A stretch of DNA of 64,000 nucleotides, taken from the NCBI GenBank assembly GCA_009837445.1, contig VXTM01000047.1, positions 72,437-136,436 on the forward strand, in the 5' to 3' direction. The stretch's first letter is position 1. Every line of letters starts with the position of its first letter. Origin of the DNA: Acidimicrobiaceae bacterium. GTDB lineage: Bacteria > Actinomycetota > Acidimicrobiia > Acidimicrobiales > Aldehydirespiratoraceae. Under the pieces are notes generated by a model. It saw only the letters and a program-made list of their open reading frames with translations. It was not told where the DNA came from and searched no databases. Below are positions 10,134-37,800 of this stretch, piece after piece. The position numbers were made by a program, and so were the translations under genes.

Positions 10134-10167
10134 TCGGAGCTCCAGCGGCGGTGGCAGCGGGATTGCT

Positions 10168-13371: not shown

Positions 13372-13394
13372 GGCAATCTCCTTCGCGTAACCGG

Positions 13395-13946
13395 TCAGAC
13401 GATAGTCCTGATGCGGGGTGCATCCACGACCGCGTCGAGGAGCACGACGAACCGAGACATGATCGAGAACGAGTCGCCCGCCCGGCGGACAATGTCGAAC
13501 CGCTCGCCGGTCATGTCCCCCGACTGGGTGCCGTGACGCACCATCGCGACCCGGACGTTCAGCCTGGCCAGGTAGGTGTCGGAGCGGTCCGTCGAGCGGA
13601 CCCGGAGCGCTGACAGGAACCGGCGCGTCCGGACCGGGGGCCGATCGGCCCACGACACCGCGATGTTGTCGTCGGTCAGCCGTGCCACCCAGTTCTCGTC
13701 GATCGACTCCCGGGTCTCGTCCATGAACAGAGCGCCCGGGTCGTAGCCGAGCTGGGGGTGCTGGTCGGTCACCAGCGGCACGGGGACGAGGTACGTGAAG
13801 TCCTCATCGACGAGGTCGAGCCACTCCTTGAGGCGCCATTCGTCCAGCAGCTCGGCCTCGTAGGCGTAGAAGAGGCCCAGTTCCTGGTGGACCGGCAGCG
13901 GAGCGGGCCCTCCGGTGGTGGTCGGATGGACCCAGCGGGCCTTCAT
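13395..13946 (-). CDS. Ring-hydroxylating dioxygenase beta (small) subunit, set 1
   Basis: ATG at 13946 in an ATGA overlap with the alpha stop. 183 aa. NTF2-like (FYAYEAELLDEWRLKEWLDL). Confidence 0.8.
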   Translation of the reverse strand: MKARWVHPTTTGGPAPLPVHQELGLFYAYEAELLDEWRLKEWLDLVDEDFTYLVPVPLVTDQHPQLGYDPGALFMDETRESIDENWVARLTDDNIAVSWADRPPVRTRRFLSALRVRSTDRSDTYLARLNVRVAMVRHGTQSGDMTGERFDIVRRAGDSFSIMSRFVVLLDAVVDAPRIRTIV

Positions 13947-15280
13947 CGAATGGACGCGGCCGGCTCGGCGACAGCCGTGAGCTCCATGCGGCGGCGCCAC
14001 TCGGTGAGGAAGCCGCGGAGGGTGTGCTCGCTGCGGTCGGCGTCCTGCACGTGGCCGGGCCACTCCAGGCCGTGCGCGTCGGGATGGTGGGTGCCGGCCA
14101 CGTAGTGGTAGGACTGGTCGAGCCCGACCGGCCCGCTGTTGGCCTCGGCCATCCCGAGGAAGTTCTCGTTGTCGTCGAGCTCGAACATCCCGCCGGGGCC
14201 GTTGGTCCTGAGGTAGGCCCGCTGGGAACGCTCCTTCCATGTCTCGGAGGCGTCGGCCGGCACGAGGTGCCACCACCAGATCTCGGTCAAGCCCTCGTCG
14301 ACAGGGACCTTGAGGGTGAGCCGGGTGTAGCGGCACATCGAGCCGGGCCCGTCGGTGGCGGTCTTGAAGTTCTCCAGGAAGGACAGGTTGGGGAACACGC
14401 TGCCGTGGGTGACCGAGGTGCGGGCCATGATGTCGACCTGGCCCGGTTTCAGGTTGCGCTCGATCTCACCCCAGAGCTCCTCCGGGTATCCGAGGAACCC
14501 GGGCGGGTGGGTCTCGATGGGCAGGTGCTGGATCCGGATGGTGTGGCCGTTGCCGCACTGCACGGTGCGTCCGGGGAACTTCGGTCCGATCAGGTCGCCG
14601 TACGGGGCCACGTCCTCGGGGCTGGGGAAGAGCCCGAACCGCAGCGCGGTCTCGTGGGTGATCATGGTGTGGTAGCCGTCGCCGGAGAGGTTCTCGGTCT
14701 CGGCCTTCCAGTTGGCGCGGATGCGGGTCCGCACCGGCGAGCCCATGACCTCGAACCCGTTGTCGAACTTCCCGAACAGCGCGTCGAAGTAGTAGGTCAT
14801 GTGGCCTAGGGCCTCGCTCAGCGACGGACCCTTGAAGTCCCATGTGGCGAAGATCAGCCCATGCAGGACCTCGACCCGGGCTGAGCGGAGGTTGAAGCGC
14901 GACTTGTCGAGGTCGGGGCCGTACACCTCCTTCTCGTAGGTGACGGCCAGGCACTTGCCGTCGAGACCGTAGGCCCAGCCGTGGTAGGAGCATCTGTGGG
15001 CCTTGGTGTTGCCGCGTTCGGGCCGGCAGAGCTTCACGCCCCGGTGCGAGCACGAGTTCAGCATCACGCCGACGGTGCCGTCCCGGCCCCGGTTCACGAT
15101 TACCGGGTCGACGCCGAGGGGCCTGGTCACGTAGTCGCCCGGCTCAGGGATCTCGGAGACGTGCCCTACGAAGAACCATGACGTCTTGAAGATCGAGTCC
15201 AGCTCGCGGCGATGGATCTCGGGGTCGTGGTAGATGCGTCGGCTGACCCGGAACCCGCCATCGGTGTCGATCAGTGCCAT
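13943..15280 (-). CDS. Rieske ring-hydroxylating dioxygenase alpha subunit, set 1
   Basis: 445 aa. Rieske motif CSHRGVKLC...CSYHGW. Catalytic-domain block GDGYHTMITHE. Confidence 0.9.
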   Translation of the reverse strand: MALIDTDGGFRVSRRIYHDPEIHRRELDSIFKTSWFFVGHVSEIPEPGDYVTRPLGVDPVIVNRGRDGTVGVMLNSCSHRGVKLCRPERGNTKAHRCSYHGWAYGLDGKCLAVTYEKEVYGPDLDKSRFNLRSARVEVLHGLIFATWDFKGPSLSEALGHMTYYFDALFGKFDNGFEVMGSPVRTRIRANWKAETENLSGDGYHTMITHETALRFGLFPSPEDVAPYGDLIGPKFPGRTVQCGNGHTIRIQHLPIETHPPGFLGYPEELWGEIERNLKPGQVDIMARTSVTHGSVFPNLSFLENFKTATDGPGSMCRYTRLTLKVPVDEGLTEIWWWHLVPADASETWKERSQRAYLRTNGPGGMFELDDNENFLGMAEANSGPVGLDQSYHYVAGTHHPDAHGLEWPGHVQDADRSEHTLRGFLTEWRRRMELTAVAEPAASIR

Positions 15281-15304
15281 CGCGATGCCCCCTCTCTCAA
15301 GAAG

Positions 15305-16282
15305 CTAGTCCCGCATGATGCGCAGGGTCCCAATCTCGGGCGCGGGAATGCCCATTCCCCGCTCGTGCGCGGCCACCAGCAGCCGGTGGGCCAGGGCGAG
15401 GTCCTGCTCGACGGTGCCGATGGACTTGAAGACCAGCGGGCCCTCGCCGGCCTGCTCGTACGGTGACTCCAGCCAGTCCTTCAACAGCACGGCCCGGTCG
15501 GGGTCGAAGCCGAATCGCTCGGCCGCGTCGATGACATCACCCGGCTCGTGACGGGCGTCGGCACAGTCGAACACCACCTGCGAGGCTTCGGCGAAGACAT
15601 CGCCGACCAGCTCCCGCTGATCGGGCCGGGTCGATCCGATTCCGGCCAGCATCTCTAGATGGGCGACCTGGCAGGCCTCCAGGAACGCCGGGCCGAGAGA
15701 CGATGTGGCGACATACGACTGCTGGGCGCCGGCCAGCGCGGCGTCCACCGAGTCCACCGGGTAGACGGGCACGCCTGCGACGGGGCCGAGAGCCTCGCAG
15801 AACGACTCCCGGTTGGCCCGGGTGGGACTGAACACCGCCACCTCGGCCAGCGTCGACACCGCGGCCACCGCCCGCAGTCCTTCTTTGGCCTCCTCGCCGC
15901 TGCCGATCACTGCCAGCTTCTTGGGCCGGCCGTCGTCGACGTGCTCGAAGGCCAGCGCGGCCGTCGAGGCGGTGCGCAGGCTGGTGATGCGGCGACCGTC
16001 GACGACCCCGATCATGTCGGCGGTGTCCCGGTCGAAGACGCTGACGTGGTAGCGGACCCGCTTGCCGACCCGGTGGAACTCCTTGTAGCCGACGATCCCG
16101 ATCTCACCCAGGATGCCGGCCAGCACCCGCATCCAGGTGTGGCCGTCGCCGATCTGCACCCTTCCGGTCACCGCCTCGGCGCGGGCTGAGACCCGGGCCG
16201 CCTCCAACCCGACCTCCACCGAGGCCAACTCGTCGACGAGGTCGCCGTCGAGGAACAGGGGCGGGTCACCCAGCGCGGTCAC
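15305..16282 (-). CDS. Ornithine cyclodeaminase/mu-crystallin family protein
   Basis: 325 aa. Blocks ITSLRTASTAALA, LAVIGSGEEA (Rossmann) and FKSIGTVEQDLALA. Confidence 0.75.
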   Translation of the reverse strand: MTALGDPPLFLDGDLVDELASVEVGLEAARVSARAEAVTGRVQIGDGHTWMRVLAGILGEIGIVGYKEFHRVGKRVRYHVSVFDRDTADMIGVVDGRRITSLRTASTAALAFEHVDDGRPKKLAVIGSGEEAKEGLRAVAAVSTLAEVAVFSPTRANRESFCEALGPVAGVPVYPVDSVDAALAGAQQSYVATSSLGPAFLEACQVAHLEMLAGIGSTRPDQRELVGDVFAEASQVVFDCADARHEPGDVIDAAERFGFDPDRAVLLKDWLESPYEQAGEGPLVFKSIGTVEQDLALAHRLLVAAHERGMGIPAPEIGTLRIMRD

Positions 16283-17298
16283 TTCGGATTCCTGCCGACC
16301 CAGAACTCCTCGTCGCCGTCGTCGGTGACGTCGAGGCCGGCGTCCACCGCGGCCTTGCGGATCATGCCCATCTGCGCCGCGTTGATGCGGGCCAGCGGCG
16401 CTCGAAGCGGCCCCCCATTGAAGCCGATCAGCCAGCCCTGGTACTTCCAGATGCTCCGGGGCACCATCCCGGTGGAGGCCACGACGGGGCTGGCGGTGGC
16501 GCTGTTGGCCTTGCGGATGGGCGCGTTGCGCCAGTACAGGTCCATGCCGTCGTCCCAGGTGGCGGGATCACTGAGCAGCTTGAGCATCTGTGGAACGCGG
16601 GGTCCGAAGGCCTCGTAGTTCGAGGTGCCCATGTACTTCATGCCGTAGTGCCGGATCCAGATCGGCGCGTTGTACTCCATGGGATCGGTCACGACGACTT
16701 GGTCGCCCAGGAGCCGGAAGACGTCGTCCATGCCTCCCGTGTAGGGCAGGCCGATCTCGTTCTTGATCCCCACCAGCATCGGACAGTCGGCCACCAGCCT
16801 CTCCAGCAGTCCCACCGGAAACGCGGCCGGATGCAGCCGGGCGAAGTTCCACTGGTCGATGGCGAACAGCAGCACGCCAAGCGGCGAGCGGTCGATCATC
16901 GCCTTGCTGGCCTCGTAGAGCTCGTCGAGGGTGCGAGGGTAGAACGTCAGCGGGTAGGACGGCAGCACCAGATCGGCCCCCAGCTCGGCGCCCCATTCGA
17001 TGGTGAGCTGCTGCTGGTCCCAGGTCGGCTGGGATGCTTGGACGACCACGACGAGGTCCCCGGCCGCGTCGATGACGATCTCCAGCAGCCGCCGGTACTC
17101 CTCGAGGGTCGTGCCCCCCTCGCTCACCGCCAGCACCGCGCTCATGCCGAGCTCCCGCTCCATCTCGACGTCGTGGCGGATGGCGGCTTCGTTCAGCGTC
17201 GACAGGTCGCCGGTGAAGGTGGGCAGCACACAGCCGCAGCACCCTCTTAGATTCTCCAGCGCCCACGCCCGCGCCCCGGTAGCGCGGTATTCAGGCAT
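16279..17298 (-). CDS. Dihydrodipicolinate synthase (DapA)-like class I aldolase family protein
   Basis: ATG at 17298 preceded by GGAGGTGG (5-nt spacer). Candidate Schiff-base lysine in LVGIKNE. 4-nt overlap with the downstream gene. Confidence 0.6.
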   Translation of the reverse strand: MPEYRATGARAWALENLRGCCGCVLPTFTGDLSTLNEAAIRHDVEMERELGMSAVLAVSEGGTTLEEYRRLLEIVIDAAGDLVVVVQASQPTWDQQQLTIEWGAELGADLVLPSYPLTFYPRTLDELYEASKAMIDRSPLGVLLFAIDQWNFARLHPAAFPVGLLERLVADCPMLVGIKNEIGLPYTGGMDDVFRLLGDQVVVTDPMEYNAPIWIRHYGMKYMGTSNYEAFGPRVPQMLKLLSDPATWDDGMDLYWRNAPIRKANSATASPVVASTGMVPRSIWKYQGWLIGFNGGPLRAPLARINAAQMGMIRKAAVDAGLDVTDDGDEEFWVGRNPK

Positions 17299-18241
17299 CT
17301 TGACCACCTCCGGTCCGCCCAGCCGCACGAGTCAGGAACAGTCGCTCGGCGTTGCGTCCGAGCATGTCGGCCCGTTGCTCGTCGTTCAAGCCCAGTTCGT
17401 CCACGACGGCCAGGTGGCGCTGCACCGGCCACGGAACCGGCGGGCAGTCGGTGCCGAAGCAGACGTGGTCTGAGCCCACCGTCTCCAAGGCCATCCGCAG
17501 TGGCCGGCTCCCGAAGGTGACCGTGTCGAGGAAGAGCTTCTTGACGTGGCTCGAGGGCGGCTCGGCCAGCTCTACCTCGCCCCACGGTCCCAGGGGGGCG
17601 TAGTTGCGCAGTTCGTGCCCGAAGTCGAGCCGATCGGCGATGGTGGTGATGGCCCCGCCGGCGTGGGCGCAGAGCAGCCGGAGCTGCGGGAACTGCTCGT
17701 AGGTGCCGGTGAGGATGAAGCGGGCCAGCGTGACCGTCATGTCCAGGGGGCGCCCGCACACTTCGCCCATGCGGTAGATGCCCATGAGGTCCTGGCCGAC
17801 GGTTTGACCGCCGGGGTGGACGAACAGGGGCGCGCCGATGCTCGAGACGTAGTCCCAGAACCCGGCCGGGACGCTGTCGAGATAGCGGTTCTGGTCGCTT
17901 GTCGGCAGAGCGAAGCCGGCCAGTCCGAGTTCCTCGGTGGCCCGCCGGGCCTCGGCCAGGTGCTCGGGTCCGCGCCAGGGGACCGCAGTGGCCAGGCCGG
18001 CGAAGGTCCCTGGATGCTGGCGGGCCAGATCTGCGACGAAGTCGTTGTAGGCGCGGACCTGCTCGATGTCGCCGGTGTCGAGGTCGCCGTACCAGATGTG
18101 AGGGTCGGAGACGATCGAGGTGGTGAGCCCGCCCTCCTCCATCCGTTCGAGTTGCCGGGGCACATCGAACAGATCGGGTGGCATGTGACCCCTCGGCTGC
18201 CACTGCGGAGGGAAGAGATGGACGTGACTGTCGACGATCAT
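17291..18241 (-). CDS. Amidohydrolase_2 family protein (ACMSD-like decarboxylase/hydratase)
   Basis: 316 aa. N-terminal MIVDSHVHLFPP metal motif. C-terminal MLGRNAERLFL is typical of the family. Confidence 0.75.
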   Translation of the reverse strand: MIVDSHVHLFPPQWQPRGHMPPDLFDVPRQLERMEEGGLTTSIVSDPHIWYGDLDTGDIEQVRAYNDFVADLARQHPGTFAGLATAVPWRGPEHLAEARRATEELGLAGFALPTSDQNRYLDSVPAGFWDYVSSIGAPLFVHPGGQTVGQDLMGIYRMGEVCGRPLDMTVTLARFILTGTYEQFPQLRLLCAHAGGAITTIADRLDFGHELRNYAPLGPWGEVELAEPPSSHVKKLFLDTVTFGSRPLRMALETVGSDHVCFGTDCPPVPWPVQRHLAVVDELGLNDEQRADMLGRNAERLFLTRAAGRTGGGQDA

Positions 18242-18244
18242 GAG

Positions 18245-20524
18245 CTATTCCTCCCCTGGATCATGCCCGGTCGGGCGGTGCAGGGCGTGCCAGAGGTGGG
18301 CCGAGCTCACGGAGCTGCTGAGCACCTCGGCCCCTGCGCCGACGGCGTCGGCGACGCCGTTGGCGACCGCGCCGAGCGAGCCGACCATCCCGGCCTCGCC
18401 GCCGCCCTTGATGCCGAGCGGGTTGGATCCGCTGCCGTGCTCGATGATGGTGACCTCCACGTCGGGCAGTTCGGCCGCGGTGGGCATCATGTAGTCGGCG
18501 AAGGTCACCGACAGCGGCTGGCCGTGCTCGTCGTACGCGATCTCCTCGAACAGCGCTCCACCGATGCCCTGCGCGGCTGCGCCCGCCAGCTGGCCCCGAA
18601 GGAGTCTCGGGTTGACGGCTCGCCCGACGTCATGGGCCAGCGCGAACCGGTCCACCCGGGCTCTGCCGTCGGCCGGGTTCACCGACACCGAGCACACCGC
18701 CCCGCCGAAGGAGGCGGTCAGCCCCTCCTTTTCGAACCGGCCGCGGGTGGGGCCGATGTCGCCGAGCCCAACCGAACGGTCGCCGGGCGCGGTCGCCGCG
18801 CCGCCGCGGAACTCCACGTCGTCGGGCCCGCATCCGAGGAGCGGCGCGGCCACCGCTCTCATCTCGTCGACAGCCGCCGCGATGGCGTTCCCGGCCAGCA
18901 CTGTGGAGCGGCTGGCGAAGGCCCCGAAGCCCTGCGGCACCTCGGCAGTGTCATGGAACTCGACGGTCACGTCGGTGAGCGGCACGTCGAGAAGTTCGGC
19001 CGCGATCTGAGCCAGCGCAGTCTCGACGCCCTGGCCCAGCGATCCGACACCGGCCCGAACGACGACATTGCCCGCGCCACCGATCACCTCGACCTCTTCG
19101 AATGGTCCGACCGCGGCGAACTCGATATAGGCCGAGATGCCGACGCCGGCATGCTGCCCATCGGCTCGCGCCTGTTGCTGCTCGACCCGCATCCGGTCGT
19201 AGCCAGCCCCGTCGAGCATCTGATCGAAAGCCTGAACGAAGTCGCCGCCCTGGTACATGATCGGCATCACCGCCCCCGAACCGGGCCCCGGCATGAAGCT
19301 GAACGGCATCGACTCGGCCGGGATCAGGTTGCGGCGCCGCAGGTCGGCCGGGTCCATCTGTAGCTCGGCCGCCAGGATGTCGACCATGCGCTCACGGACG
19401 AAAGTGGCCTCGGTCATGCCCGGGCCGCGGTAGGTGCCGACCGGGGTCCGGTTCGTCAGCACCGCGTCGAGATCCATGCTGAACGCCTGCCACTCGTAGG
19501 GACCGGGAAGGTGGACCATGGGGAGCACGACCGGCAGCAGGCCCTGGGTCCTGACGTAGGCGCCGTGGTCGCACCATCCCCGTACCCGGAAACCCAGCAT
19601 CCGGCCGTCGGCGCCGGCCGCCAGCTCGAAGTCGTGCTCCTGTTCCCGGGCATGGTTGGTGGCGACCATGTGCTCCCAGCGGTCCTCGATCCACTGGACG
19701 GGCCTCTCGAGACGCCGGGCCAGCAGCGCGACGAGGATGTCCTCGGGGTAGGGCTCGCCCCGCGTCCCGAACCCGCCCCCCACTTCAACCTCGATGACGC
19801 GGACTTTGGTCAGCTCAAGCCCCAGCACGCGGCTCAGCAGGGCCCGGGTGAAGTGCTTGACCTTGGCGCCGCCCCACACCGTGAGCCCGCCTGATCCGGA
19901 GTCGTAGTCGGCCACCAGCCCGCGGGTCTCCATCGGCGTCGCGGCGAGGCGATGGACACGCAGCCGGCGGCGGACCACCACATCGGCCTGCGCGAACGCC
20001 GCGTCAACGTCTCCGTAACGGTAGGCGAGCCGGCCGATGGTGTTGCTTCCGAAGCTCTCGTGCACCAACGTCCGGGAAGACTCCGCCGACGTGGCTGGAT
20101 CGAGGACCGGCTCCAGCTCCTCGAGATCGACGGAGACGAGTTCGGCGGCGTCCTCGGCCACATAGGGGTCATCGGCCACGACCACCGCGACCGGTTCGCC
20201 GACGTAGCGGACGACATCGGCGGCCAAGGGTGCCTGCAGCACCGCGTTGGCCTCGGGCGACTCCGCGAACGGGAGCCGGATCGGTATCCGGATGTCGTCG
20301 ATGTCGTCGGCGGTGATGGCTGCCACGACGCCGGGGACCCGCAGGGCTTCGGAGGTGTCTACGCCGAGCAGCCGGGCGTGGGCCGACGGGCTCCGCACCA
20401 CCCGGGCGTACACCTGGCCCTCGAGTCGGATGTCGGCCACGTAGGTTCCTTCGCCGGTGAGCAGCTCCCGGTTCTTGCGCCTAGGCGCGGGGCTGCCGAT
20501 GAGCCCGCCGCGGGGCGCGCTCAC
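18245..20524 (-). CDS. Xanthine-dehydrogenase-family molybdopterin-binding large subunit, set 2 (L3)
   Basis: 759 aa. N-terminus RRKNRELLTGEGTYVADI. Loop GTYRGPGMTE. 4-nt overlap with the upstream M gene. Confidence 0.85.
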   Translation of the reverse strand: MSAPRGGLIGSPAPRRKNRELLTGEGTYVADIRLEGQVYARVVRSPSAHARLLGVDTSEALRVPGVVAAITADDIDDIRIPIRLPFAESPEANAVLQAPLAADVVRYVGEPVAVVVADDPYVAEDAAELVSVDLEELEPVLDPATSAESSRTLVHESFGSNTIGRLAYRYGDVDAAFAQADVVVRRRLRVHRLAATPMETRGLVADYDSGSGGLTVWGGAKVKHFTRALLSRVLGLELTKVRVIEVEVGGGFGTRGEPYPEDILVALLARRLERPVQWIEDRWEHMVATNHAREQEHDFELAAGADGRMLGFRVRGWCDHGAYVRTQGLLPVVLPMVHLPGPYEWQAFSMDLDAVLTNRTPVGTYRGPGMTEATFVRERMVDILAAELQMDPADLRRRNLIPAESMPFSFMPGPGSGAVMPIMYQGGDFVQAFDQMLDGAGYDRMRVEQQQARADGQHAGVGISAYIEFAAVGPFEEVEVIGGAGNVVVRAGVGSLGQGVETALAQIAAELLDVPLTDVTVEFHDTAEVPQGFGAFASRSTVLAGNAIAAAVDEMRAVAAPLLGCGPDDVEFRGGAATAPGDRSVGLGDIGPTRGRFEKEGLTASFGGAVCSVSVNPADGRARVDRFALAHDVGRAVNPRLLRGQLAGAAAQGIGGALFEEIAYDEHGQPLSVTFADYMMPTAAELPDVEVTIIEHGSGSNPLGIKGGGEAGMVGSLGAVANGVADAVGAGAEVLSSSVSSAHLWHALHRPTGHDPGEE

Positions 20525-21384
20525 GGGCCGCCCCCCAGTCTTCTCAAGGCCCGCTCGACCAGATGCGATACGAGCGCTCTGCGATAGGTGCCGTCGGCGT
20601 GCCAGTCGCCGGCATCCGGGTCACAGAGCTCCGCGGCCAGCCGGGCGCACTCGACGATCGCGGTGTCGTCGAGGAACGAGCCCGACAGCGCCTGCTCGGC
20701 GTCGAGGGCCCGTACCGGCGTCGGGCCGACGCTCCCGAGCGCGATCCTCACGTCGCGGGCCGATCCGTCGGTGGCCAGCCGGCACCCGGCGGCCACCGAG
20801 GCGTAGGCGAAGTCGCCTATTCGGGGGCTGAACTCCTCGAACACCGACCGGAACCCCGTGCCCGGCGTAGGGAACCGGGCCTCGACCAGGACCTCGTCGG
20901 GGTCGGCCGCCGTGGTCAGCGGGGCCAGGAAGAAGTCGCGGGCAGGCATCGTGCGGACACCCCGGACGCTCCTGAGGACGATCTCCGCGTCGAATGCCGC
21001 GGCCACCACCCCGAGCTCGCTAGCAGGGTCGGCATGGGCCAGGCTCCCGCCGAAGGTGCCTCTGACCCTTATCGGCAGGTGGCCTATGAGCGAGGCCGCC
21101 TCCCGGAGGGCCTGCCATCCGCCGTTGAGATCGGCCCGCTCGAGCGTCGCGTGCCGGACGAGCGCGCCGACGCGCAGGCAGCCGTCCTGCTCTTCGAGGG
21201 TGTCGAGCCCCTCAATCCCGCCGATGTCAATGAGGTGGCTGGGCCGGGCCAGCCTGAAGGCCAGCAGCGGCAGCAGGCTCTGGCCGCCGGCCAGCAGCTT
21301 GGCGTCCTCTCCGGCCTCATCGAGAAGAGCGACCGCTTCGTCGAGCGTGCCCGCCGCCGCGTAGGCGAAGGGAGGAGGCTTCAC
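20521..21384 (-). CDS. Mo-hydroxylase FAD-binding medium subunit, set 2
   Basis: GTG at 21384 in a GTGA overlap with the S stop, preferred over the ORF start at 21561. Blocks KPPPFAYAAAGTLDEAVALL and AGGQSLLPLLAFR. Confidence 0.8.
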   Translation of the reverse strand: MKPPPFAYAAAGTLDEAVALLDEAGEDAKLLAGGQSLLPLLAFRLARPSHLIDIGGIEGLDTLEEQDGCLRVGALVRHATLERADLNGGWQALREAASLIGHLPIRVRGTFGGSLAHADPASELGVVAAAFDAEIVLRSVRGVRTMPARDFFLAPLTTAADPDEVLVEARFPTPGTGFRSVFEEFSPRIGDFAYASVAAGCRLATDGSARDVRIALGSVGPTPVRALDAEQALSGSFLDDTAIVECARLAAELCDPDAGDWHADGTYRRALVSHLVERALRRLGGGP

Positions 21385-21878
21385 GGGTCGTCCCGGTTCG
21401 CGGCCAGAGCGTCCAGAGCAGCTTGAAACACGGGCACCGCACCGGTGCAGCGGCACAGATTCGAGGAGACCACCTCCAGGATCCGGTCCCGTCCTGCCTC
21501 CGGTTCGGAGCGCAGCAGGCTCTCGATCAGCATGAGGAAACCGGGTGTGCAGAACCCGCACTGCAGGGCGTCGTTGTCATCGAAGGCCTGCTGCAGGGCG
21601 CTGAGCCCGTCGCCGTCGGCGAGGCTCTCGACCGTCTCGATGTCGTGGCCCTGTCCCTGGACGGCCAGCATCAGGCACGAGCGGACGGCGGTGCCGTCCA
21701 GCAGGATCGTGCAGGAGCCGCACACGCCGTGCTCGCAGCCGAGGCGCACGCTGGTGAGGCCGGCGTCGCGCAGAGCGTCGGCCAGGGTCCGCCTGGGCGG
21801 GACGCGAACCTCCCGCGACGCGCCGTTCACGGTCAGGGTGACGGCAGCCGACTCATAGGGATCGAGCCATCCAGCCAT
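21381..21878 (-). CDS. Mo-hydroxylase (2Fe-2S)-binding small subunit, set 2
   Basis: 165 aa. Motifs CEHGVCGSCTI, CGFCTPG and CRCTGA (Tyr of the usual CRCTGY replaced by Ala). Confidence 0.9.
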   Translation of the reverse strand: MAGWLDPYESAAVTLTVNGASREVRVPPRRTLADALRDAGLTSVRLGCEHGVCGSCTILLDGTAVRSCLMLAVQGQGHDIETVESLADGDGLSALQQAFDDNDALQCGFCTPGFLMLIESLLRSEPEAGRDRILEVVSSNLCRCTGAVPVFQAALDALAANRDDP

Positions 21879-21885: not shown

Positions 21886-22893
21886 TTACACGGAGACGGC
21901 AGCGCGGTCCGCGAGGTCTCGCAGGAGCTTCCGGTAGGCGATCGATCCGGAGTCGGCCAGCTTGAGGTGGAGTTCCTCGCGGGGGTCGAGGGGCAGCTCG
22001 GCCGGATCCTGGGCCTCGACCACGATGCGGTCCTGCTCCATCACGTCGTGGAACCCGGCGCCGAAGTCGGCGTCGGAGGTGTCGAAGGAGTGATTGCGCG
22101 ACAGCCACGAGAAGATGCGGGTCTCAGCCCGGTCGGTGGGTGAGGCGATGAAGGTGATGGTGGTGATGTCGCCTGCCTTCGACTCGCCCTGCTCGGACCA
22201 GGTCACACCGCCGCTGACGGCCACCACGGACTTGCGATCGTGCAGGGTGAAGGGGAGGTGCAGCGTGTAGTCGCGCAACAGCACGCTGTCGTCGTAGGCG
22301 TACCTCATGCCGTCGCCGGTGACCTCGACCTCAAAGGGCTTGATGAACGCTCCGTCGGCCAGTTCCGTGAAGCCCTCGTGCACGAAGTTGAAGTGGGCGA
22401 AGTCGATGGCGTTCTCCAGCATCCGCCCGGCGGACGATTGCCAGCGCCAGGTGCCCACCAGGAACACATGCCAGTCGTCGCTGTTCCAGTCGTCGTCGGG
22501 CCACGGGGGAAGATCGGCCACCGGTTCGTCGGGCGCGATCCATACCGCACCGTGGTCCTCGCGCACGTGGTAGCGGTGGACCCTGGCCTGGCTCGGGATG
22601 GCGCCCCCGGCTCCCAGCGCCGGGATGAACGCCACCTTGCCGGTGCGGTCGTACTGCCAGCCGTGGTAGGGGCACATCAGGCGCCCATCGCGGATGCAGC
22701 CCCCCGACAGCGCCACTCCCCGGTGCACGCACTTGTCCCGCAGAGCCACCAGTCCCTCGTCGTCGCGGTAGAGCACGATGGTCTCGCCCAGCAGCCTCAC
22801 CTGCATGGGCTCGGCAGTGACCTCTTCGGAAACCGCGACCGGATGCCAGTAGTGCCTCAGCGCCTGGTCGAACTGCTGTGCCTGGTCGAGCAT
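21886..22893 (-). CDS. Rieske non-heme iron oxygenase, single-subunit (VanA/PaO/OxoO/NdmA-like) type, paralog 1
   Basis: ATG at 22893 (MLDQAQQFDQALRHYWHPV). Rieske motif CVHRGVALS...CPYHGW. Catalytic motif ENAIDFAHFNFVH. About 335 aa. Confidence 0.8.
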   Translation of the reverse strand: MLDQAQQFDQALRHYWHPVAVSEEVTAEPMQVRLLGETIVLYRDDEGLVALRDKCVHRGVALSGGCIRDGRLMCPYHGWQYDRTGKVAFIPALGAGGAIPSQARVHRYHVREDHGAVWIAPDEPVADLPPWPDDDWNSDDWHVFLVGTWRWQSSAGRMLENAIDFAHFNFVHEGFTELADGAFIKPFEVEVTGDGMRYAYDDSVLLRDYTLHLPFTLHDRKSVVAVSGGVTWSEQGESKAGDITTITFIASPTDRAETRIFSWLSRNHSFDTSDADFGAGFHDVMEQDRIVVEAQDPAELPLDPREELHLKLADSGSIAYRKLLRDLADRAAVSV

Positions 22894-22921: not shown

Positions 22922-24028
22922 TCAGGGCGCCTTGGACATATCGACGATGGCGGCCACCATGCCACCTCCGGCGGGACCCTGCTGGAGAGCCGCCACCGAG
23001 CAGTACACGGCCGGATCCCCGATGGCGGCGGCCGCTACCGCACCCACGGCGCCCTTGGTGTGGTGGGTGTGGTGGATGTCGGAGTCGTTGATCGAGACGA
23101 GCCGGCGGCCCCGCAGCCGTCCCGAGGGGTCGGTCTCGCACTTGATGAAGCAGTTCACGACGGCATCGCCCAGGTCGCTGGGGTGGGGCCGGTCGGGCAG
23201 GTCGAGGCCGGCCGAGCGGATGGCGTCGTAGATCCCGTCGAAGTCGAGGGCGTCGCGCATGACGGAGTGGCCGATGCGGAAGTCGCCGCCAGCTCCGGCC
23301 TTGTTGCCAACGACGACGATCTGGGCGGGATCCTGCTCGACGCCCGACGAGCACGACGCCACCGACGAGTACAGGTCGAGATCGTTGGCGATCTGCTCGG
23401 GGCGGGGCAGGTCGAACTCGCCTACGGCGTACCCGATGCCGAGCGCGGCGGTGGCGTTGGACACCGCCATCGACTCCATCGTGTCGGTCATGACCACATC
23501 CTTGCCCCGGCTGCGGGCGTCCTCGATGCGCTCCCGGGTCAGCAGCGGGGTCTTGGACTGCACGAAATGGACGTCGGCGGGATCGTCGATGCCCGCGTCG
23601 GCCATGGCGACCCGAACCCCCTCGGCCACCTTCTCCACCATCGGCAGGCGGCCGATTTCCTCGGGCAGGATCGCCTCCGACATGGTCACGCCCACCGCCA
23701 GCCGCTTCTCGTCGCCGGGGGCGCCGTTGCCGCCGACCCGGGCGAAGACGTTCATGTGGGGCGCGATCACGCCGTCGGTGCCGCCGGACCACACGATGGG
23801 CATGCGGTCGATCTCAGACGGCGACCGCGTCCCGTGCACGTTGAGGAAGTCGCGGAAGACACGATCAGCCAGGATCCGGGAGAAGTCGTTGACCCCGCCG
23901 TTGCCCTCCGTCTTGCCGATCACGCCGATGATCTCGTCAGCGGTGAACGAGCCATTCTCGATCTCGGCCAGCAGGCCGCTCATGTCCGACACGAACTCGA
24001 AGGGGATCTTGCGTACAACTATGGGCAT
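22922..24028 (-). CDS. Ring-opening amidohydrolase of the AtzD/TrzD cyanuric acid hydrolase / barbiturase family
   Basis: 368 aa. Collinear with Pseudomonas AtzD as I remember it: GKTEGNGGVNDF, WSGGTDGV..PH.NVFAR, LPEEIGR, VHFVQSKTPLLT, ESMAVSN, ASCSSGVE, NCFIKCE, RGRR, DSDIHHT, QQGPAGGG. Confidence 0.85.
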   Translation of the reverse strand: MPIVVRKIPFEFVSDMSGLLAEIENGSFTADEIIGVIGKTEGNGGVNDFSRILADRVFRDFLNVHGTRSPSEIDRMPIVWSGGTDGVIAPHMNVFARVGGNGAPGDEKRLAVGVTMSEAILPEEIGRLPMVEKVAEGVRVAMADAGIDDPADVHFVQSKTPLLTRERIEDARSRGKDVVMTDTMESMAVSNATAALGIGYAVGEFDLPRPEQIANDLDLYSSVASCSSGVEQDPAQIVVVGNKAGAGGDFRIGHSVMRDALDFDGIYDAIRSAGLDLPDRPHPSDLGDAVVNCFIKCETDPSGRLRGRRLVSINDSDIHHTHHTKGAVGAVAAAAIGDPAVYCSVAALQQGPAGGGMVAAIVDMSKAP

Positions 24029-24766
24029 CTAGCGGTCTCCTGTGTTGTGGTCGACTCCGAAGAAGAGCGCCTGCAGCGCCGTGTCCTCCAGCACCTCCTG
24101 GCTCGACACGGGCTGGCCGAGAACACCGGCCTGCATCACATACACCCGGTCACAGTGGGGCAGGCAGACAAGCGGGCTCTCCTCGATCACCCACATGAGG
24201 GTCGTGCCCGAGTCGCGGATCCGCAGGATGTCGTCGATCCGCTCCCGCACGATGGACGGCGCCAGTCCCGTTGTGGGCTCGTCGAGGGCCAGGAAGCGGG
24301 GTCCGGTGATCATGGCGCTGGCCAGGGCCAGCATCTGGCGCTCGCCTCCCGACAGCGTGCTGGCATTCTGTCCCATGCGATCGCGCAGAGCGGGGTACGA
24401 CTCGGCTACCTCGCCGACGCGCCGGCGGATCTCGACGGGACTGGATCCCCGAAGCGCCACCGACAGGTTGTCGCGCACGCTCAGGTCGGGGAAGGTGTTG
24501 TGCTCCTGGGGCACATAGCCCATGCCGAGCTCGGCCAGGCTGTGCGCGGGGTGGCGCCGCAGGTCCGCGCCCTCGAAACTCACCGTCCCACCCGCCGCCG
24601 GCAACAGGCGGAAGATCGTCTTCAGCAGCGTTGACTTGCCGGCACCGTTGGGCCCGACCACGGCGACGATCTCGCCGGCGGTCACCTCGAGGTCGACGCC
24701 GTGCAGCACCGGGAATCCCCCGTAGCCGGCCTCGAGAGCCTCGACGCGAAGGACGGCCTCGCTCAT
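24029..24766 (-). CDS. ABC transporter ATP-binding protein (LivF-like)
   Basis: 245 aa. Walker A GPNGAGKST, signature LSGGERQM, Walker B FLALDEPT. Its stop abuts the ATG of the amidohydrolase gene. Confidence 0.85.
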   Translation of the reverse strand: MSEAVLRVEALEAGYGGFPVLHGVDLEVTAGEIVAVVGPNGAGKSTLLKTIFRLLPAAGGTVSFEGADLRRHPAHSLAELGMGYVPQEHNTFPDLSVRDNLSVALRGSSPVEIRRRVGEVAESYPALRDRMGQNASTLSGGERQMLALASAMITGPRFLALDEPTTGLAPSIVRERIDDILRIRDSGTTLMWVIEESPLVCLPHCDRVYVMQAGVLGQPVSSQEVLEDTALQALFFGVDHNTGDR

Positions 24767-25542
24767 GCCTCCGAGTCCTTTGCGCCGTCCTCGCCGAGGT
24801 ACACCCGCATGACGTCTGGGTTGGCGGCGATCTCGGCGGGCGGCCCCGAGGCCAGCAGCGCGCCCCGATCGAGCACATGCACCTCGTCGGCGATCTGCAT
24901 GAGGAACGAGAGATTGTGGTCGATTATCAGGCTCCCCAGCCCCCGCTCGTCGCAGAGCCGCCGCACGAGCTGCGACAGCCGTCCGATGTTGGCCGGGGCG
25001 ACTGCGGCGGCCGGCTCGTCGAGCAGCAGCATCTTGGGCTCGGCCATCAGCGAGCGAGCGAACTCGAGCAGCTTGCGATCGCCGGCCGACAGCTCGTCGG
25101 TACGGACATCGAGCAGATCGGCCATGCCCAGCTCGGCCGAGATCTCCTCCGCACGGTCCCCGGACGCCCGCTCATGGTCCCGGGCCTTGCGGCTCAGCCC
25201 GAGAGCCCCCAGCGGGGTCTCGGCGAAGTGGGGCGTAGCCGCGGCGAGCAGGCTCTCACGCACCGTCAGGGTCGTGAACCCGACCGGGGTCTGGAACGTC
25301 CTGATGAGCCCGAGCTCGGCCACCCTCCACGGCGGCAGCCCGTCGATGCGTTGATCGCCGAAGCTGATCGACCCCCGATCCGGGGGATCGAAGCCGGTAA
25401 TGGCGTTGAAGAGGGTGGTCTTGCCGGCGCCGTTGGGCCCGATCAGCGCGGTGACCCTGTCCTGGGGCATCACCGCCGACACGTCGTCGACTGCGACCAC
25501 GCCGCCGAAGGTCTTGCGGACCGTGTCGAGCACGAGTTCCAT
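24763..25542 (-). CDS. ABC transporter ATP-binding protein (LivG-like)
   Basis: ATG at 25542 (MELVLDTVRKTFGG) preferred over the ORF start at 26442, which overlaps the permease. Walker A GPNGAGKTT. Block LLLDEPAA. ATGA overlap with the next gene. Confidence 0.85.
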   Translation of the reverse strand: MELVLDTVRKTFGGVVAVDDVSAVMPQDRVTALIGPNGAGKTTLFNAITGFDPPDRGSISFGDQRIDGLPPWRVAELGLIRTFQTPVGFTTLTVRESLLAAATPHFAETPLGALGLSRKARDHERASGDRAEEISAELGMADLLDVRTDELSAGDRKLLEFARSLMAEPKMLLLDEPAAAVAPANIGRLSQLVRRLCDERGLGSLIIDHNLSFLMQIADEVHVLDRGALLASGPPAEIAANPDVMRVYLGEDGAKDSEA

Positions 25543-25550: not shown

Positions 25551-26540
25551 CTATCCGCCCGAGCCTTGAGCGGCTCCGGCCGGGCGCGAGTCTCCTGCGG
25601 ACCGTCCGGCCGGGCGGTTGCCGGCCCCGAAGGCGCTCCGCTCCGAGAACAGCCCGTCCGGGCGGAAGCGCAGCACCAGCACCAGAAGCAGGCCCACCAT
25701 GAACGGCTCGATGGCGACCAGGATGTTGATGTGGGAGGGATCGACCTCGATGAGGCCCACCGCCTCGGTGAACACGATCAGGACGAAGGCGCCGGCGAGG
25801 CCGCCGCGGATGCTTCCCAGGCCCCCGATGACCAGCGCGGTCCACACCGTGAAGGTGATGCCCGGCGCGAACAGCTGCGGTGAGACGGCCCGGATGTAGA
25901 ACAGGTACACCGGGGCGGTGGCTCCGATGAGGACTCCGGCCAGCACGAAGGTCTTGATCCTCATCCGGTTGACCCGCTTGCCCAGCGCGAGGGCGACGGC
26001 CTCGTTGTCGCGGGCGGCCCGGAGCGTCCGGCCGAACGGTGAGATCCCGATCTGGCGGGTGACGAGATACATGACGGCCGCGGCCGCCACTGCGATGCCG
26101 AGCAGTACGTAGTTGTAGTCGCGGCCGGTGACGAAGCTGTCGAAGGGGCGGTTGATGTTGGGCACCCCCAGCGTGCCCCGGGTGAGGTCGGCCTGGATGA
26201 CCACCAACTGGCGGATGATCTCGGCGAAGGCCAGCGTGGTGATCAGGAAGTACTCGCGCCTTAATCGGAGCGCGGGCGCGCCGATGGCGAACGCCACCAG
26301 ACCGGTGAACAGGGCCGACAGCGGCCAGGCCACCCACATAGACAATCCGGGCGCGAACCGCATGCCGAGATCCGGGTCGGCGGTGAGAATCACGTAGCAG
26401 TAGCTGCCGGCGGCCAGTAGTCCGGCGATGCCGAGATCCCACATGCCGCCCCAGCCGGACTCGACGTTGAGCGCCATGGCCAGGCTGGCGTAGATCGCCG
26501 CCAGCGTCAGCACGCCCACCCAGAAGATGGGATTGGTCAT
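25551..26540 (-). CDS. Branched-chain-amino-acid-type ABC permease (LivM-like)
   Basis: 329-aa polytopic membrane ORF. Lies 8 nt upstream of the LivG-like gene. Confidence 0.8.
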   Translation of the reverse strand: MTNPIFWVGVLTLAAIYASLAMALNVESGWGGMWDLGIAGLLAAGSYCYVILTADPDLGMRFAPGLSMWVAWPLSALFTGLVAFAIGAPALRLRREYFLITTLAFAEIIRQLVVIQADLTRGTLGVPNINRPFDSFVTGRDYNYVLLGIAVAAAAVMYLVTRQIGISPFGRTLRAARDNEAVALALGKRVNRMRIKTFVLAGVLIGATAPVYLFYIRAVSPQLFAPGITFTVWTALVIGGLGSIRGGLAGAFVLIVFTEAVGLIEVDPSHINILVAIEPFMVGLLLVLVLRFRPDGLFSERSAFGAGNRPAGRSAGDSRPAGAAQGSGG

Positions 26541-26574: not shown

Positions 26575-27444
26575 TCATGCCACCACCGCGTCCTTGCGAC
26601 GCTGGACGGAGAGGATCCCCTCGGGCCTCAGTATCAGAACCGCGACCAGCACCCCGAAGGCCACCACCGGCCGGTAGGCGGTGGGGATGAACAGCGCGGA
26701 GACGTCCATCATGATCCCCAGCAGCAGCCCGGCCAGGATCACACCGGTGATGCTGCGCAGGCCGCCCAGCACTGCGGCGGCCAGCACGATCAGGATGTTG
26801 TGCCAGCCGATCTCGGTGTTGACCGCACCGAGCACGCCGAGCATCACGCCGGCCATGGCTCCGAAGGCCGAGCTGATGAACCAGATCGTGTTGGACACGG
26901 TGCGCACCGGCACGCCCCTGACCCGGGCTAGGTCGTCGTTGCTGGCCACGGCCCGGATGGCTCGCCCCAGTCCGGTGGAGTTGAGGAAGATCTGGAGCGC
27001 GGCGATGCTGCCGAACGCCAGCCCGATGATCACCAGCTCGTTGGTGGCGATGCCGATGCCCGCGAAGCGGTGCAGTCCGCCTGACACGTCGGGGTAGAAG
27101 CGGGCCTGGGTTCCGAACAGTGCCAGGATGGCGGCGTACATCATCAGCGCCAGCCCGATCGAGGTGAACAGCAGCACGGTGCCGCCCTGGTGGCGCACCG
27201 GCTGGAAGAAGACGGCGGACAGGACAACCCCCAGGGCGCCGAGCCCGACCACGGTGATGGCGCCGGCCAGGAAGATGTTCATGCCGTAGGTGTCCACCAG
27301 CACCACGCCGACGAAGGCGCCCAGCGCCATCATCTGGGCGTGGGCGATGTTGAGGAAGTTCTCGGTCTGTCGCACCAGCGCGAATCCGAGGGTCGCCACG
27401 GCCAGGATGCTGCCGGTGACGATCCCGAAGACGACGTTCTGCAC
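26575..27444 (-). CDS. Branched-chain-amino-acid-type ABC permease (LivH-like)
   Basis: 289-aa polytopic membrane ORF (MQNVVFGIVTGSILAVATLGFALV). Confidence 0.8.
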   Translation of the reverse strand: MQNVVFGIVTGSILAVATLGFALVRQTENFLNIAHAQMMALGAFVGVVLVDTYGMNIFLAGAITVVGLGALGVVLSAVFFQPVRHQGGTVLLFTSIGLALMMYAAILALFGTQARFYPDVSGGLHRFAGIGIATNELVIIGLAFGSIAALQIFLNSTGLGRAIRAVASNDDLARVRGVPVRTVSNTIWFISSAFGAMAGVMLGVLGAVNTEIGWHNILIVLAAAVLGGLRSITGVILAGLLLGIMMDVSALFIPTAYRPVVAFGVLVAVLILRPEGILSVQRRKDAVVA

Positions 27445-27522: not shown

Positions 27523-28770
27523 TTAGGACGGCTTGACCAGCGTCGGGTCGAGCTCGATGTTCTCCCGGACGGCCCAGTCCCCGTCCTGCACGTGGATCAC
27601 CGCCATCACTGGCGACAGCAGGTTGCCCACGCTGTTCAGGTTCATGTTGGAGGTGGTGCCGTGATAGTCGATGTCGTTGCCGGCCTCGAGCTCGGCCAGA
27701 CCCTGGGCGTAGCTGAATACCTCCACGCCGGGCGGGTTGGCGATCTCCGGGATGGCTGCGGCCACGGCAGCGCCGTCGGTCGTGCCGGCCTTCGCGGTGG
27801 CCAGCCCCAGGATGATGTACTGGTCGTACTGCCAGGCGTCGTAGAACGCGATCTCGGGCGGGTCGCCGATCTTGGCCTCGAACCGGGGCACGTAGGCGTC
27901 CCAGGCCGGGTTGTTCTCGGTGTCGTAGGCGGTGGCGCCGACGATGGCTGAGGCGCCCTCCACGCCGCTGATGATCTCGGCGATCTCGGGGCTGAGGAGG
28001 TCAGTCGTCAGGATCAGGGGAATGTCGGAGTAGCCGCGGCGCTGCCACTCATTGAGGAGCGGTACGCCCGTCTCGAAACCGGCCGCGATGTAGACGGCGT
28101 CAGGGCCCGACTCGAAGGCCTGGGCGACCTGAGCCGCGTAGGTGGTCTCCCCGGCGTTGAAGCGGACATCCGCGGTGACGGAGCCGCCCATCTGCTCGGT
28201 GAAGACGGCCTTGAAGACATTGGCGGGGCTCTCAGTGCCCTCGCTCAACTCGACCAGCATGGCCACGTTGCGGTAGCCCTCGTCGCGGGCCACCTGGGCG
28301 CCGACGATGCCGTTGTCGGTGTCGGAGGGGATGATCCGGAACACCATGTCGCCGCCGGTGTTGTCGAGTTCGGTGGTGCCGCAGGTGCTGCAGATCGTCG
28401 GGATCTGAAGCTCGTGCACCGTGTCGAAGATGGCGATCATCCCGTCGGACTCGATCCCGCCCAACGCGTGGATCCCGTCGACCTCGGTCAGCTCGGCGAA
28501 GCCCGACACCGCGCCCTCAGGCGTCGATCCGTTGTCCTCGACGACCAGCTCGACACTACGGCCGAGCACTCCGCCGCCCGCATTGAGCTCCTCGACGGCC
28601 ACTTCCGCCGCGGCCAAAGCCCAGTGGCCCCAGGGTCCGTAGTCCCCGGACTGCCCGTTGAGGAAGCCGTACTTGACGGGACCCTCCTCCGCAGCATCAC
28701 CGCTATCACCGCTGCAAGCTGCGGCGGCCACGAGGCCAACCGCAAGCAGCGCCACGAGTACGCGCTTCAC
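27523..28770 (-). CDS. ABC transporter substrate-binding lipoprotein (Liv/Peripla_BP_6 type)
   Basis: GTG at 28770 preceded by GGAAGGAG (7-nt spacer). Lipoprotein signal VKRVLVALLAVGLVAAAAC-SGD. About 415 aa. Confidence 0.8.
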   Translation of the reverse strand: MKRVLVALLAVGLVAAAACSGDSGDAAEEGPVKYGFLNGQSGDYGPWGHWALAAAEVAVEELNAGGGVLGRSVELVVEDNGSTPEGAVSGFAELTEVDGIHALGGIESDGMIAIFDTVHELQIPTICSTCGTTELDNTGGDMVFRIIPSDTDNGIVGAQVARDEGYRNVAMLVELSEGTESPANVFKAVFTEQMGGSVTADVRFNAGETTYAAQVAQAFESGPDAVYIAAGFETGVPLLNEWQRRGYSDIPLILTTDLLSPEIAEIISGVEGASAIVGATAYDTENNPAWDAYVPRFEAKIGDPPEIAFYDAWQYDQYIILGLATAKAGTTDGAAVAAAIPEIANPPGVEVFSYAQGLAELEAGNDIDYHGTTSNMNLNSVGNLLSPVMAVIHVQDGDWAVRENIELDPTLVKPS

Positions 28771-32761: not shown

Positions 32762-32805
32762 GGGTCCAACCTGCCGAGCACATCAAGCAAAAGGAGCGCT
32801 TCCCC

Positions 32806-34538: not shown

Positions 34539-34573
34539 GCCGGGGTACTGGCGCGACTGGCGTTGAGGCCGGG

Positions 34574-35314: not shown

Positions 35315-35382
35315 GGGGCGGCACCATAGCCGGGGCGATCCGGCCGGCTCATGTCGGGCGCCACCCGCCCCGCTGAGGTCCG

Positions 35383-37698: not shown

Positions 37699-37800
37699 GG
37701 TTGCCTCCTGAGTGCTGGGATGCCGTCTGCGACCATACCCCGACAGGTGTGCGAGGACCGATTCGGGACTGCCCGCGTTGCATGAGGCACCGGGGCGCGG

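Follow-up and report, generated by a model that had tools for sequence, protein, structure and literature searches.

A ring-opening amidohydrolase of the barbiturase branch in a probable N-heterocycle catabolic operon of uncultured Acidimicrobiales

INTRODUCTION

To our knowledge, hydrolysis of cyanurate and hydrolysis of barbiturate are the only two firmly established activities of the Toblerone-fold ring-opening amidohydrolases, the family that comprises AtzD, TrzD, and barbiturase (Bar). Barbiturase converts barbiturate to ureidomalonate; it is inhibited by cyanurate, which it does not turn over. Work by Soong and coworkers in 2001 and 2002 reportedly found that the oxidative catabolism of pyrimidines requires, ahead of barbiturase, a Mo-Fe/S-flavoprotein that acts as uracil/thymine dehydrogenase, so a neighboring molybdenum (Mo) hydroxylase is not exotic for the barbiturase branch. 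Here we analyze a family member encoded in a 64-kb stretch of DNA from an Acidimicrobiaceae bacterium (contig VXTM01000047.1 of assembly GCA_009837445.1); we call the whole of this stretch the window and the gene product the hydrolase. By sequence, it belongs to the barbiturase branch and is a Ser-Lys ring-opening amidohydrolase whose catalytic apparatus is intact. The hydrolase is probably part of an undescribed N-heterocycle breakdown pathway, and we favor, with moderate confidence, barbiturate or an N- or C5-substituted barbiturate as its substrate, barbiturate itself and a substituted analogue being about equally likely.

In the literature that we searched, we found no gene-level description of uracil dehydrogenase, ureidomalonase, or barbiturase operons, and barbiturase seems to be the only enzyme of the oxidative pyrimidine pathway to which a gene has been assigned. 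At the level of the protein, Peat et al. (2013, PMC3758960) proposed five specificity positions (AtzD 195, 321, 325, 345, and 346), which read R195, T321, R325, G345, and G346 (RTRGG) in cyanuric acid hydrolases (CAHs) and N195, H321, K325, V345, and S/A346 in barbiturases (their Group VI). In AtzD, residues 188, 191, 321, and 345 line one of the two cavities through which the active site is reached (PMC3758960), and changes at residue 345 and at nearby residue 195 mirror C5 of barbiturate. In the Moorella CAH, Shi et al. (2019, PMC6557486) described Arg325 as a second-shell residue that positions the site-A Arg via Glu87, and placed His352 in a mobile segment by which the metal loop and domain 2 are coupled. 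For the carbamoyl chemistry that might follow ring opening, the relevant described system is Escherichia coli AllFGH, an oxamate carbamoyltransferase, with carbamate kinase (PMC11326118).

RESULTS

The hydrolase gene (22922 to 24028, minus strand) begins with ATG, encodes 368 amino acids, and has a GC content of 0.68, 0.46, and 0.92 at first, second, and third codon positions, like genuine genes of this 69% GC window. Its product matches PF09663 over residues 5 to 363 (E = 5.3e-131; 437 bits against a cutoff of 25) and TIGR02714 (454 bits; cutoff, 153). The gene is therefore genuine, and its product is a full-length AtzD/TrzD/barbiturase-family protein, as had been proposed in a reading made from the sequence alone. 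An identical protein is found on at least 24 public contigs. On contig VYFR01000056.1 (GCA_009842315.1), identity to the window is 99 to 100% over all 20 matched neighbor genes; the glyoxalase was not recovered. NCBI names the protein "ring-opening amidohydrolase [Acidimicrobiaceae bacterium]," and its nearest species representatives are Acidimicrobiales metagenome-assembled genomes, at 92% and 89% identity.

The best PDB match of the hydrolase is Rhodococcus erythropolis barbiturase (5HWE; 448 bits), followed by the CAHs of Moorella, TrzD, AtzD, and Azorhizobium (307 to 218 bits); it is 59.5% identical to the former and 43 to 48% identical to solved CAHs. An AlphaFold model (pTM 0.79; input alignment of 17 sequences) predicts the Toblerone fold, and Foldseek gave the same order of matches as the sequence did, with TM 0.82 to 5HWE and 0.78 to 0.79 to the CAHs. 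With 421 bits, the hydrolase also exceeds the cutoff (360) of NF052395, the NCBIfam equivalog named "cyanuric acid amidohydrolase"; since authentic R. erythropolis barbiturase scores 478 bits against the same model, this match carries no information on the substrate.

We mapped active-site residues by aligning the hydrolase to AtzD, TrzD, the Moorella CAH, and Bar, using the residue lists of PMC3758960 and PMC4051656. Three Ser-Lys dyads, one per pseudo-repeat, are present (K39/S81, K159/S227, and K296/S344), aligned with AtzD K42/S85, K162/S233, and K296/S344, as is the invariant Glu by the second dyad (E231). The sequence-only reading had recognized the Lys and Ser of all three repeats, and all six residues are indeed there, but it had placed the second-repeat serine in the motif ESMAVSN: the catalytic residue is S227 in ASCSSGVEQ, and ESMAVSN instead holds N191, which replaces the second substrate-binding Arg. 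The metal-binding loop A-x-x-Q-G-P-x-G-G-G occurs as SVAALQQGPAGGG, with the C-terminal QGPAGGG that had been noted earlier, and the Glu of repeat 3 is E298 in KCE; the residue before QGP is Gln in the hydrolase and His across the family.

Substrate-binding positions differ from those of CAHs. Only R51, the single Arg that is conserved universally, survives of the substrate-binding Arg triad, the other two positions being N191 and K325. At the five specificity positions, the hydrolase reads NTKVA (N191, T321, K325, V345, and A346), and R. erythropolis Bar reads NHKVS. The hydrolase thus lacks the CAH signature and is barbiturase-like at four of five positions, short of the full barbiturase signature by Thr for His at 321. 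Judged by these residues, it is not a cyanuric acid hydrolase. The smaller residue at 321 could leave space for a ring substituent.

Phylogeny gave a consistent picture. From 89 distinct genomic loci and 120 database proteins, we defined the NT clade as the sequences at least 65% identical to the hydrolase, with the NTKVA pattern (121 sequences), and the NH clade as the remaining sequences, including Bar, with the pattern NHKV followed by A, S, or D. The NTKVA pattern was found in every sequence above the 65% threshold bar three (P0045, NTKVG; P0117, NSKDP; and P0115, NHKVG). In a neighbor-joining tree with 60 extra family representatives from a library that had been clustered at 50% identity, bootstrap support was 100/100 for NT, 74/100 for NH, and 100/100 for NT and NH together (including R. 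erythropolis Bar). The hydrolase fell outside every cluster with the CAH signature. On this evidence it is placed specifically on the barbiturase branch, in the separate sister subclade NT. Three differences between the clades are fixed: T321 (Thr in all 121 NT sequences examined; His in NH), H322 (Arg in NH), and Q349 (His in NH). Of these positions, Arg at 322 is common to barbiturases and CAHs, and nearly all family members have His at 349; the Moorella CAH counterparts of these two residues are Arg325 and His352 (PMC6557486). Acidimicrobiia and Alphaproteobacteria are represented in both clades, so the NT/NH split is not simply taxonomic. A plasmid search for relatives returned only TrzD-like CAHs and two NH-like actinomycete genes. 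We found no description of the NT subclade, its fixed substitutions, or its conserved operon in the literature searched.

The two clades also differ in their surroundings. We counted gene types within 10 kb of the hydrolase gene in 20 NT and 69 NH loci, and found the neighborhoods to be almost mutually exclusive. Genes for VanA-type Rieske oxygenases, Liv-type ATP-binding cassette (ABC) importers, and CMD-family proteins were each present in 9 of 20 NT loci, and RidA in 10 of 20; none of the four was present near any of the 69 NH genes. Carbamate kinase showed the reverse distribution (0/20 NT; 38/69 NH). AllG-like genes (2/20 NT; 18/69 NH), FdrA/AllF-like genes (2/20; 19/69), and CN_hydrolase genes (3/20; 18/69) were found in both, as were Mo hydroxylases (10/20; 11/69).

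Close relatives of the window retain a conserved core. In four loci (L087, L088, L089, and L093), whose hydrolases are 93%, 87%, 86%, and 69% identical to the window copy, we found at least one VanA-type Rieske gene, the Liv-type ABC genes, the hydrolase gene, and a convergent two-large-subunit Mo hydroxylase operon with cupins; ABC, hydrolase, and VanA genes stay together from 69% to 100% hydrolase identity. L089 and L093 additionally contain a CN_hydrolase gene. Two alphaproteobacterial NT loci (L014 and L015) have AllF/AllG-like carbamoyltransferase genes directly after the hydrolase gene, as in many NH loci, which suggests that the NT product is probably an N-acylurea too, and hence that the ring is a ureide. 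We noticed no biuret or allophanate hydrolase in the neighbor annotations of five NT loci; these enzymes were not among the families of the 10-kb counts.

CMD-family (carboxymuconolactone decarboxylase/AhpD-like) genes have a distinctive position in part of the NT clade. In three loci with gene calls, such a gene overlaps the hydrolase stop codon (L090, 11113 to 11700; L091, 11098 to 11679; and L092, 11098 to 11679), and in other NT loci with 70 to 74% identity it is immediately downstream. The CMD protein may decarboxylate the ring-opened product. In the window, the only CMD open reading frame (37816 to 38361, plus strand) is a distant one (32% identity) and lies ~14 kb away.

Another unusual neighbor is a protein of 425 to 437 amino acids encoded divergently beside the hydrolase gene (L093, 8525 to 9802, minus strand; L091, 8507 to 9814; and L092, 8537 to 9850). 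Three Ribonuc_L-PSP/RidA domains were confirmed in the L093 copy, and the L091 and L092 copies are listed as PF01042. Because the proposed origin of the Toblerone fold is a concatenation of three RidA/YjgF units, it is curious to find a triple-RidA fusion adjoining a gene for this fold.

NH loci have a different organization. In L022 (10001 to 18554; signature NHKVA), genes for the hydrolase, AllH-like, AllF(FdrA)-like, and AllG-like proteins, and the FAD, Fe-S, and large subunits of a Mo hydroxylase are co-directional. The order is the same in L052, L056, L059, and L073; the AllH-like gene between hydrolase and AllF-like genes was confirmed only in L022. In Streptosporangiales loci such as L033 (8985 to 9947) and L016, a carbamate-kinase-like protein is encoded directly upstream of the hydrolase gene. 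By analogy, this co-directional run looks like a complete oxidative pyrimidine operon: its content suggests that the Mo hydroxylase is uracil/thymine dehydrogenase and that the "ureidomalonase" step is a phosphorolytic carbamoyl transfer, like that of AllFGH on oxalurate.

In the window, the hydrolase operon lies on the minus strand, with gaps of at most 84 nucleotides (most under 30) or overlaps of 4 to 8 nucleotides. It contains no terminator-like site; the only one is upstream, at ~30.3 kb. No nucleotide lies between the TAG of the preceding ABC ATPase gene and the hydrolase ATG, which has AGGAG 9 nucleotides upstream, and 28 nucleotides separate its stop codon from the next gene, encoding an NdmA-like Rieske protein, after which come three Mo hydroxylase subunits; the abutting start and stop and this gene order had both been read correctly from the sequence. 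We predict that the hydrolase is translationally coupled to the five-gene Liv-type ABC importer and cotranscribed with the Rieske and Mo hydroxylase genes.

The importer genes, identified by Pfam as were the Rieske and Mo hydroxylase genes of this operon, begin with the first gene of the operon, encoding a Liv/amide-type periplasmic binding protein (Peripla_BP_6; 27523 to 28770), and continue with two BPD_transp_2 permeases (26575 to 27444 and 25551 to 26540) and two ABC ATPases (24763 to 25542 and 24029 to 24766, the second abutting the hydrolase gene). A PDB search with the binding protein gave generic Leu/Ile/Val-type matches only and was uninformative. Downstream of the hydrolase gene is VanA1 (21886 to 22893), a VanA-type Rieske mono-oxygenase of 335 amino acids with Rieske and VanA_C domains. 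Its best PDB matches are NdmA, a methylxanthine N1-demethylase, and SxtT (~135 bits; E = 4e-38), with NdmB and SxtDIOX also listed; its position beside the hydrolase gene is conserved in L007, L087, L088, and L089.

A nine-gene, 9.4-kb co-directional block (12463 to 21878, minus strand) extends the operon only in the window lineage. It comprises Mo hydroxylase set a (Fe-S subunit, 21381 to 21878; FAD subunit, 20521 to 21384; and large subunit, 18245 to 20524), an Amidohydro_2 decarboxylase-like protein of the LigW/ACMSD/IDCase type (17291 to 18241), a DHDPS-like protein (16279 to 17298), an OCD/mu-crystallin protein (15305 to 16282), the alpha (13943 to 15280) and beta (13395 to 13946) subunits of a ring-hydroxylating dioxygenase, and an extradiol dioxygenase (12463 to 13371). 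The set a large subunit has 6-hydroxypseudooxynicotine dehydrogenase as its best PDB match (517 bits). None of the syntenic loci L087, L088, L089, and L093 has the block, which has the look of an aromatic or N-heterocycle module inserted recently.

Facing the hydrolase operon from the left is a convergent Mo hydroxylase operon (5070 to 12459, plus strand). Two cupin genes (5070 to 5456, no Pfam family; and 5273 to 5833) are followed by genes for an FAD subunit (6423 to 7283), large subunit b (~7285 to 9657), an Fe-S subunit (9654 to 10133), and large subunit c (10027 to 12459); a RidA gene (5868 to 6260) is on the minus strand. Between 6423 and 12459, two different Mo large subunits, 37% identical to each other, thus flank a single Fe-S gene, and a single FAD gene precedes them. 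This layout is conserved in L087, L088, L089, L093, and L009; we know of no characterized enzyme that has it.

On the other side of the ABC genes, and on the plus strand, are a second VanA-type Rieske oxygenase, VanA2 (31793 to 32761), and genes for an AndAc-like Rieske alpha subunit (32806 to 34065) and a SnoaL-like beta subunit (34065 to 34538), followed on the minus strand by a TenA/PqqC-like gene (34574 to 35587). This block (31793 to 35587) is conserved beside the ABC genes in L007, L008, L088, and L089; relative to L087, L088, L089, and L093, the window has a four-gene insertion between the binding protein gene and VanA2. We considered whether the luciferase-like, alpha/beta-hydrolase, and PNPOx genes at 28.9 to 31.7 kb form a Rut pathway and rejected the idea, since the luciferase-like product belongs to the F420-dependent Mer/FGD type rather than to RutA and neither L088 nor L089 has the block. 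We also rejected a role as a triazine hydrolase like AtzB or AtzC for an Amidohydro_1 protein (36274 to 38091): it is related to proteins of the Arg-carboxypeptidase, prolidase, and ochratoxinase types, and 12 kb separate it from the hydrolase gene.

NCBIfam scans of ten neighbor proteins reached no equivalog cutoff. In agreement with the sequence-only reading, Pfam scans of essentially all predicted proteins in the 64 kb, together with tblastn, found no amidase-signature enzyme, allophanate hydrolase, or isochorismatase-type biuret hydrolase, nor any urease, CN_hydrolase, carbamate kinase, or AllF/AllG/AllH.

Farther away, a xanthine/uracil-family permease (575 amino acids) and a 414-amino-acid protein with no Pfam match are encoded in that order at 48448 to 51419 (plus strand), ~24 kb from the hydrolase gene; the permease may be a nucleobase importer outside the hydrolase operon. 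Two cytochrome P450s, SnoaL-like genes, a family III CoA-transferase, and several alpha/beta hydrolases occupy a stretch that includes 39622 to 40836 (minus strand), 44930 to 46309 (minus strand), and 46782 to 48038 (plus strand). Much of the ~45 kb between 5 and 50 kb resembles a catabolic island, in which Pfam detected no transcription regulator. A DUF222-HNH endonuclease gene lies just upstream of GyrA/ParC-like and then GyrB/ParE-like genes (A before B) at 52066 to 58710 (plus strand). The P450, Mo hydroxylase, and Rieske genes of the window raised a link to the riboflavin/lumichrome cluster, which we rejected: the part of the published account that we drew on (PMC12746152) reports no AtzD-family enzyme in that cluster.

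DISCUSSION

We propose that the operon serves uptake and oxidation of an N-heterocycle whose ring the hydrolase then opens. NdmA and NdmB demethylate pyrimidinedione ring nitrogens of xanthines, and because they are among the best solved relatives of the neighboring Rieske proteins, the importer may take up a pyrimidine-type N-heterocycle, possibly N-methylated. The Rieske enzymes would demethylate or hydroxylate the imported heterocycle, and the Mo hydroxylases would add oxo groups beside ring nitrogens until a 2,4,6-trioxo (barbiturate-type) ring is formed. The hydrolase would cleave one amide bond of that ring, yielding a ureidomalonate-type N-acylurea; attack on the ring carbonyl might be via S227/K159/E231 (Cho et al. 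2014, PMC4051656) or via S81/K39 (Peat et al. 2013, PMC3758960).

Several observations weigh against barbiturate or a substituted barbiturate as the substrate. The fixed NT residues T321, H322, and Q349 correspond, in the Moorella CAH (PMC6557486), to positions at substrate site A, behind it, or in the mobile segment of the metal loop; NT enzymes may accordingly differ from barbiturase in specificity. Model confidence is low in residues 297 to 353, and for this reason we drew no active-site geometry from the model. The Mo hydroxylases beside NH genes are only ~30% identical to the three large subunits of the window. CN_hydrolase, AllFGH, and carbamate kinase, the candidates for processing ureidomalonate, are missing from the window, and Pfam scans of its 64 kb found no reductase partner for the Rieske enzymes. 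Our literature search found no assayed NT-clade enzyme.

The sequence-only reading had treated the context as non-canonical and as pointing away from cyanurate. The setting is indeed not of the atz/trz type, and signature residues, tree, and context make cyanurate an unlikely substrate. The presence of a Mo hydroxylase is, on the other hand, nothing exotic for the barbiturase branch (11 of 69 NH loci), and the argument for a different substrate instead gains from the separate subclade, its T321/H322/Q349 substitutions, and a neighborhood of its own. A bolder idea, which we offer as a tentative possibility, is that the NT clade has a third Toblerone-fold specificity, for a substituted (N-methyl or C5) barbiturate or a related ureide ring. 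In this scheme, methylated natural products of the pyrimidine or purine type would be imported by Acidimicrobiales and some Alphaproteobacteria, demethylated by NdmA-like Rieske oxygenases, and oxidized by the two-large-subunit Mo hydroxylase, and the NT enzymes would provide the ring-opening step of this undescribed route.

The strongest competing explanation is an ordinary barbiturase (EC 3.5.2.1) for uracil/thymine oxidation, with NT substitutions reflecting neutral drift and Rieske and ABC genes being unrelated. It overlaps the explanation that we prefer, which allows barbiturate itself; it draws on the high identity to barbiturase and on the Mo hydroxylase and AllFG neighbors shared in some loci, and we consider it possible, if clearly the less likely of the two. 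Neutral drift with unrelated neighbors does not sit well with the mixed taxonomy of both clades, with the restriction of VanA-type Rieske and Liv-type ABC genes to NT loci and of carbamate kinase to NH loci, or with the persistence of the ABC-hydrolase-VanA association over a wide range of identities.

Next comes a different pyrimidine substrate, perhaps a uracil with a carboxyl or other substituent (for example, orotate or isoorotate), which would also make NT a third specificity. The deposit title of a Frankia homologue (PDB 5hy0; listed elsewhere as "ring-opening amidohydrolase") is "orotic acid hydrolase," 9 of the 20 NT loci have a CMD-family gene that overlaps or directly follows the hydrolase gene, and RidA is enriched near NT genes. 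Yet the hydrolase is only 33 to 35% identical to 5hy0, its pocket signature is barbiturase-like at four of five positions, and no carboxylate-binding change is evident in the sequence. We regard this substrate class as unlikely.

Less likely still is a ring that is not a ureide, for instance 2,4,6-trihydroxypyridine or some other pyridone or hydroxylated pyridine produced by the neighboring hydroxylases, an option raised in the sequence-only reading. The combination of two or three Mo hydroxylases, Rieske oxygenases, and an Amidohydro_2 decarboxylase does resemble picolinate/nicotinate catabolic clusters, the Mo large subunit a is closest in PDB to a nicotine-pathway enzyme, and the fixed NT substitutions close to the active site could accommodate another ring. 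The Amidohydro_2 gene and Mo set a are nevertheless a window-lineage insertion outside the conserved core, the ring-facing residues are otherwise identical to those of barbiturase, and both the AllF/AllG-like genes directly after the hydrolase gene in L014 and L015 and the CN_hydrolases in L089 and L093 point to a carbamoyl/ureido product, all of which disfavors a pyridine ring.

A cyanuric acid hydrolase (EC 3.5.2.15) whose partner genes, for the biuret and allophanate steps, lie in another part of the genome is highly improbable: the NF052395 match, the use of that name for NT-clade proteins in some JGI records, and the Liv-type ABC system that lies near atzD in Pseudomonas sp. ADP speak for it, but NF052395 does not discriminate, two of three substrate Arg and both Gly of RTRGG are replaced (N191, K325, V345, and A346), the protein is outside all clusters with that signature, and the 64 kb contain no biuret or allophanate genes.

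What was known, then, is the family and its barbiturase branch; what appears to be new is the NT subclade, its fixed substitutions, and its conserved operon. A well-populated and strongly supported sister clade with changes at otherwise invariant positions is a candidate for a new substrate specificity, and its operon offers a way into an uncharacterized route of N-heterocycle catabolism in uncultured Acidimicrobiales. Annotation is affected as well. JGI's automatic names for NT-clade proteins vary among "cyanuric acid amidohydrolase," "barbiturase," and "ring-opening amidohydrolase-like": since these names are used interchangeably and NF052395 accepts barbiturase, surveys based on names overcount cyanuric acid degradation potential, and automated names in the AtzD/TrzD/Bar family are unreliable for substrate.

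Among described systems, the closest to the hydrolase is the barbiturase of R. erythropolis JCM 3132 (Bar, EC 3.5.2.1, PDB 5HWE). The two have the same fold and length, conserved dyads, E231, and R51, and the specificity residues N, K, V, and A/S in common, and some relatives adjoin a Mo hydroxylase, as the oxidative pyrimidine pathway would lead one to expect. The hydrolase differs by T321 (His in Bar), H322 (Arg), and Q349 (His), which are fixed across the NT clade, and by its setting: barbiturase-type loci have carbamate kinase, AllFGH-like, and CN_hydrolase genes, whereas the hydrolase has an ABC importer, NdmA-like Rieske oxygenases, and a two-large-subunit Mo hydroxylase. AtzD, TrzD, and the Moorella CAH (EC 3.5.2.15) share with it the family, dyads, metal loop, and Thr321; unlike them, it has one Arg of the triad, V/A in place of G345/G346, and no nearby biuret or allophanate genes.

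For the accessory enzymes, NdmA and NdmB of Pseudomonas putida CBB5 are among the best solved relatives of VanA1 and VanA2, tied with SxtT, and both systems have two paralogous oxygenases; the similarity to the window Rieske proteins is moderate (~135 bits), and the window encodes no NdmD-type reductase. We know of no Ndm system linked to a barbiturase-family enzyme. Finally, homologues of E. coli AllFGH and carbamate kinase (PMC11326118) are absent from the window, yet are encoded beside barbiturase-family genes in many related loci, which suggests, by analogy with oxalurate, that the N-acylurea product of these hydrolases is phosphorolyzed by AllFGH-like enzymes.

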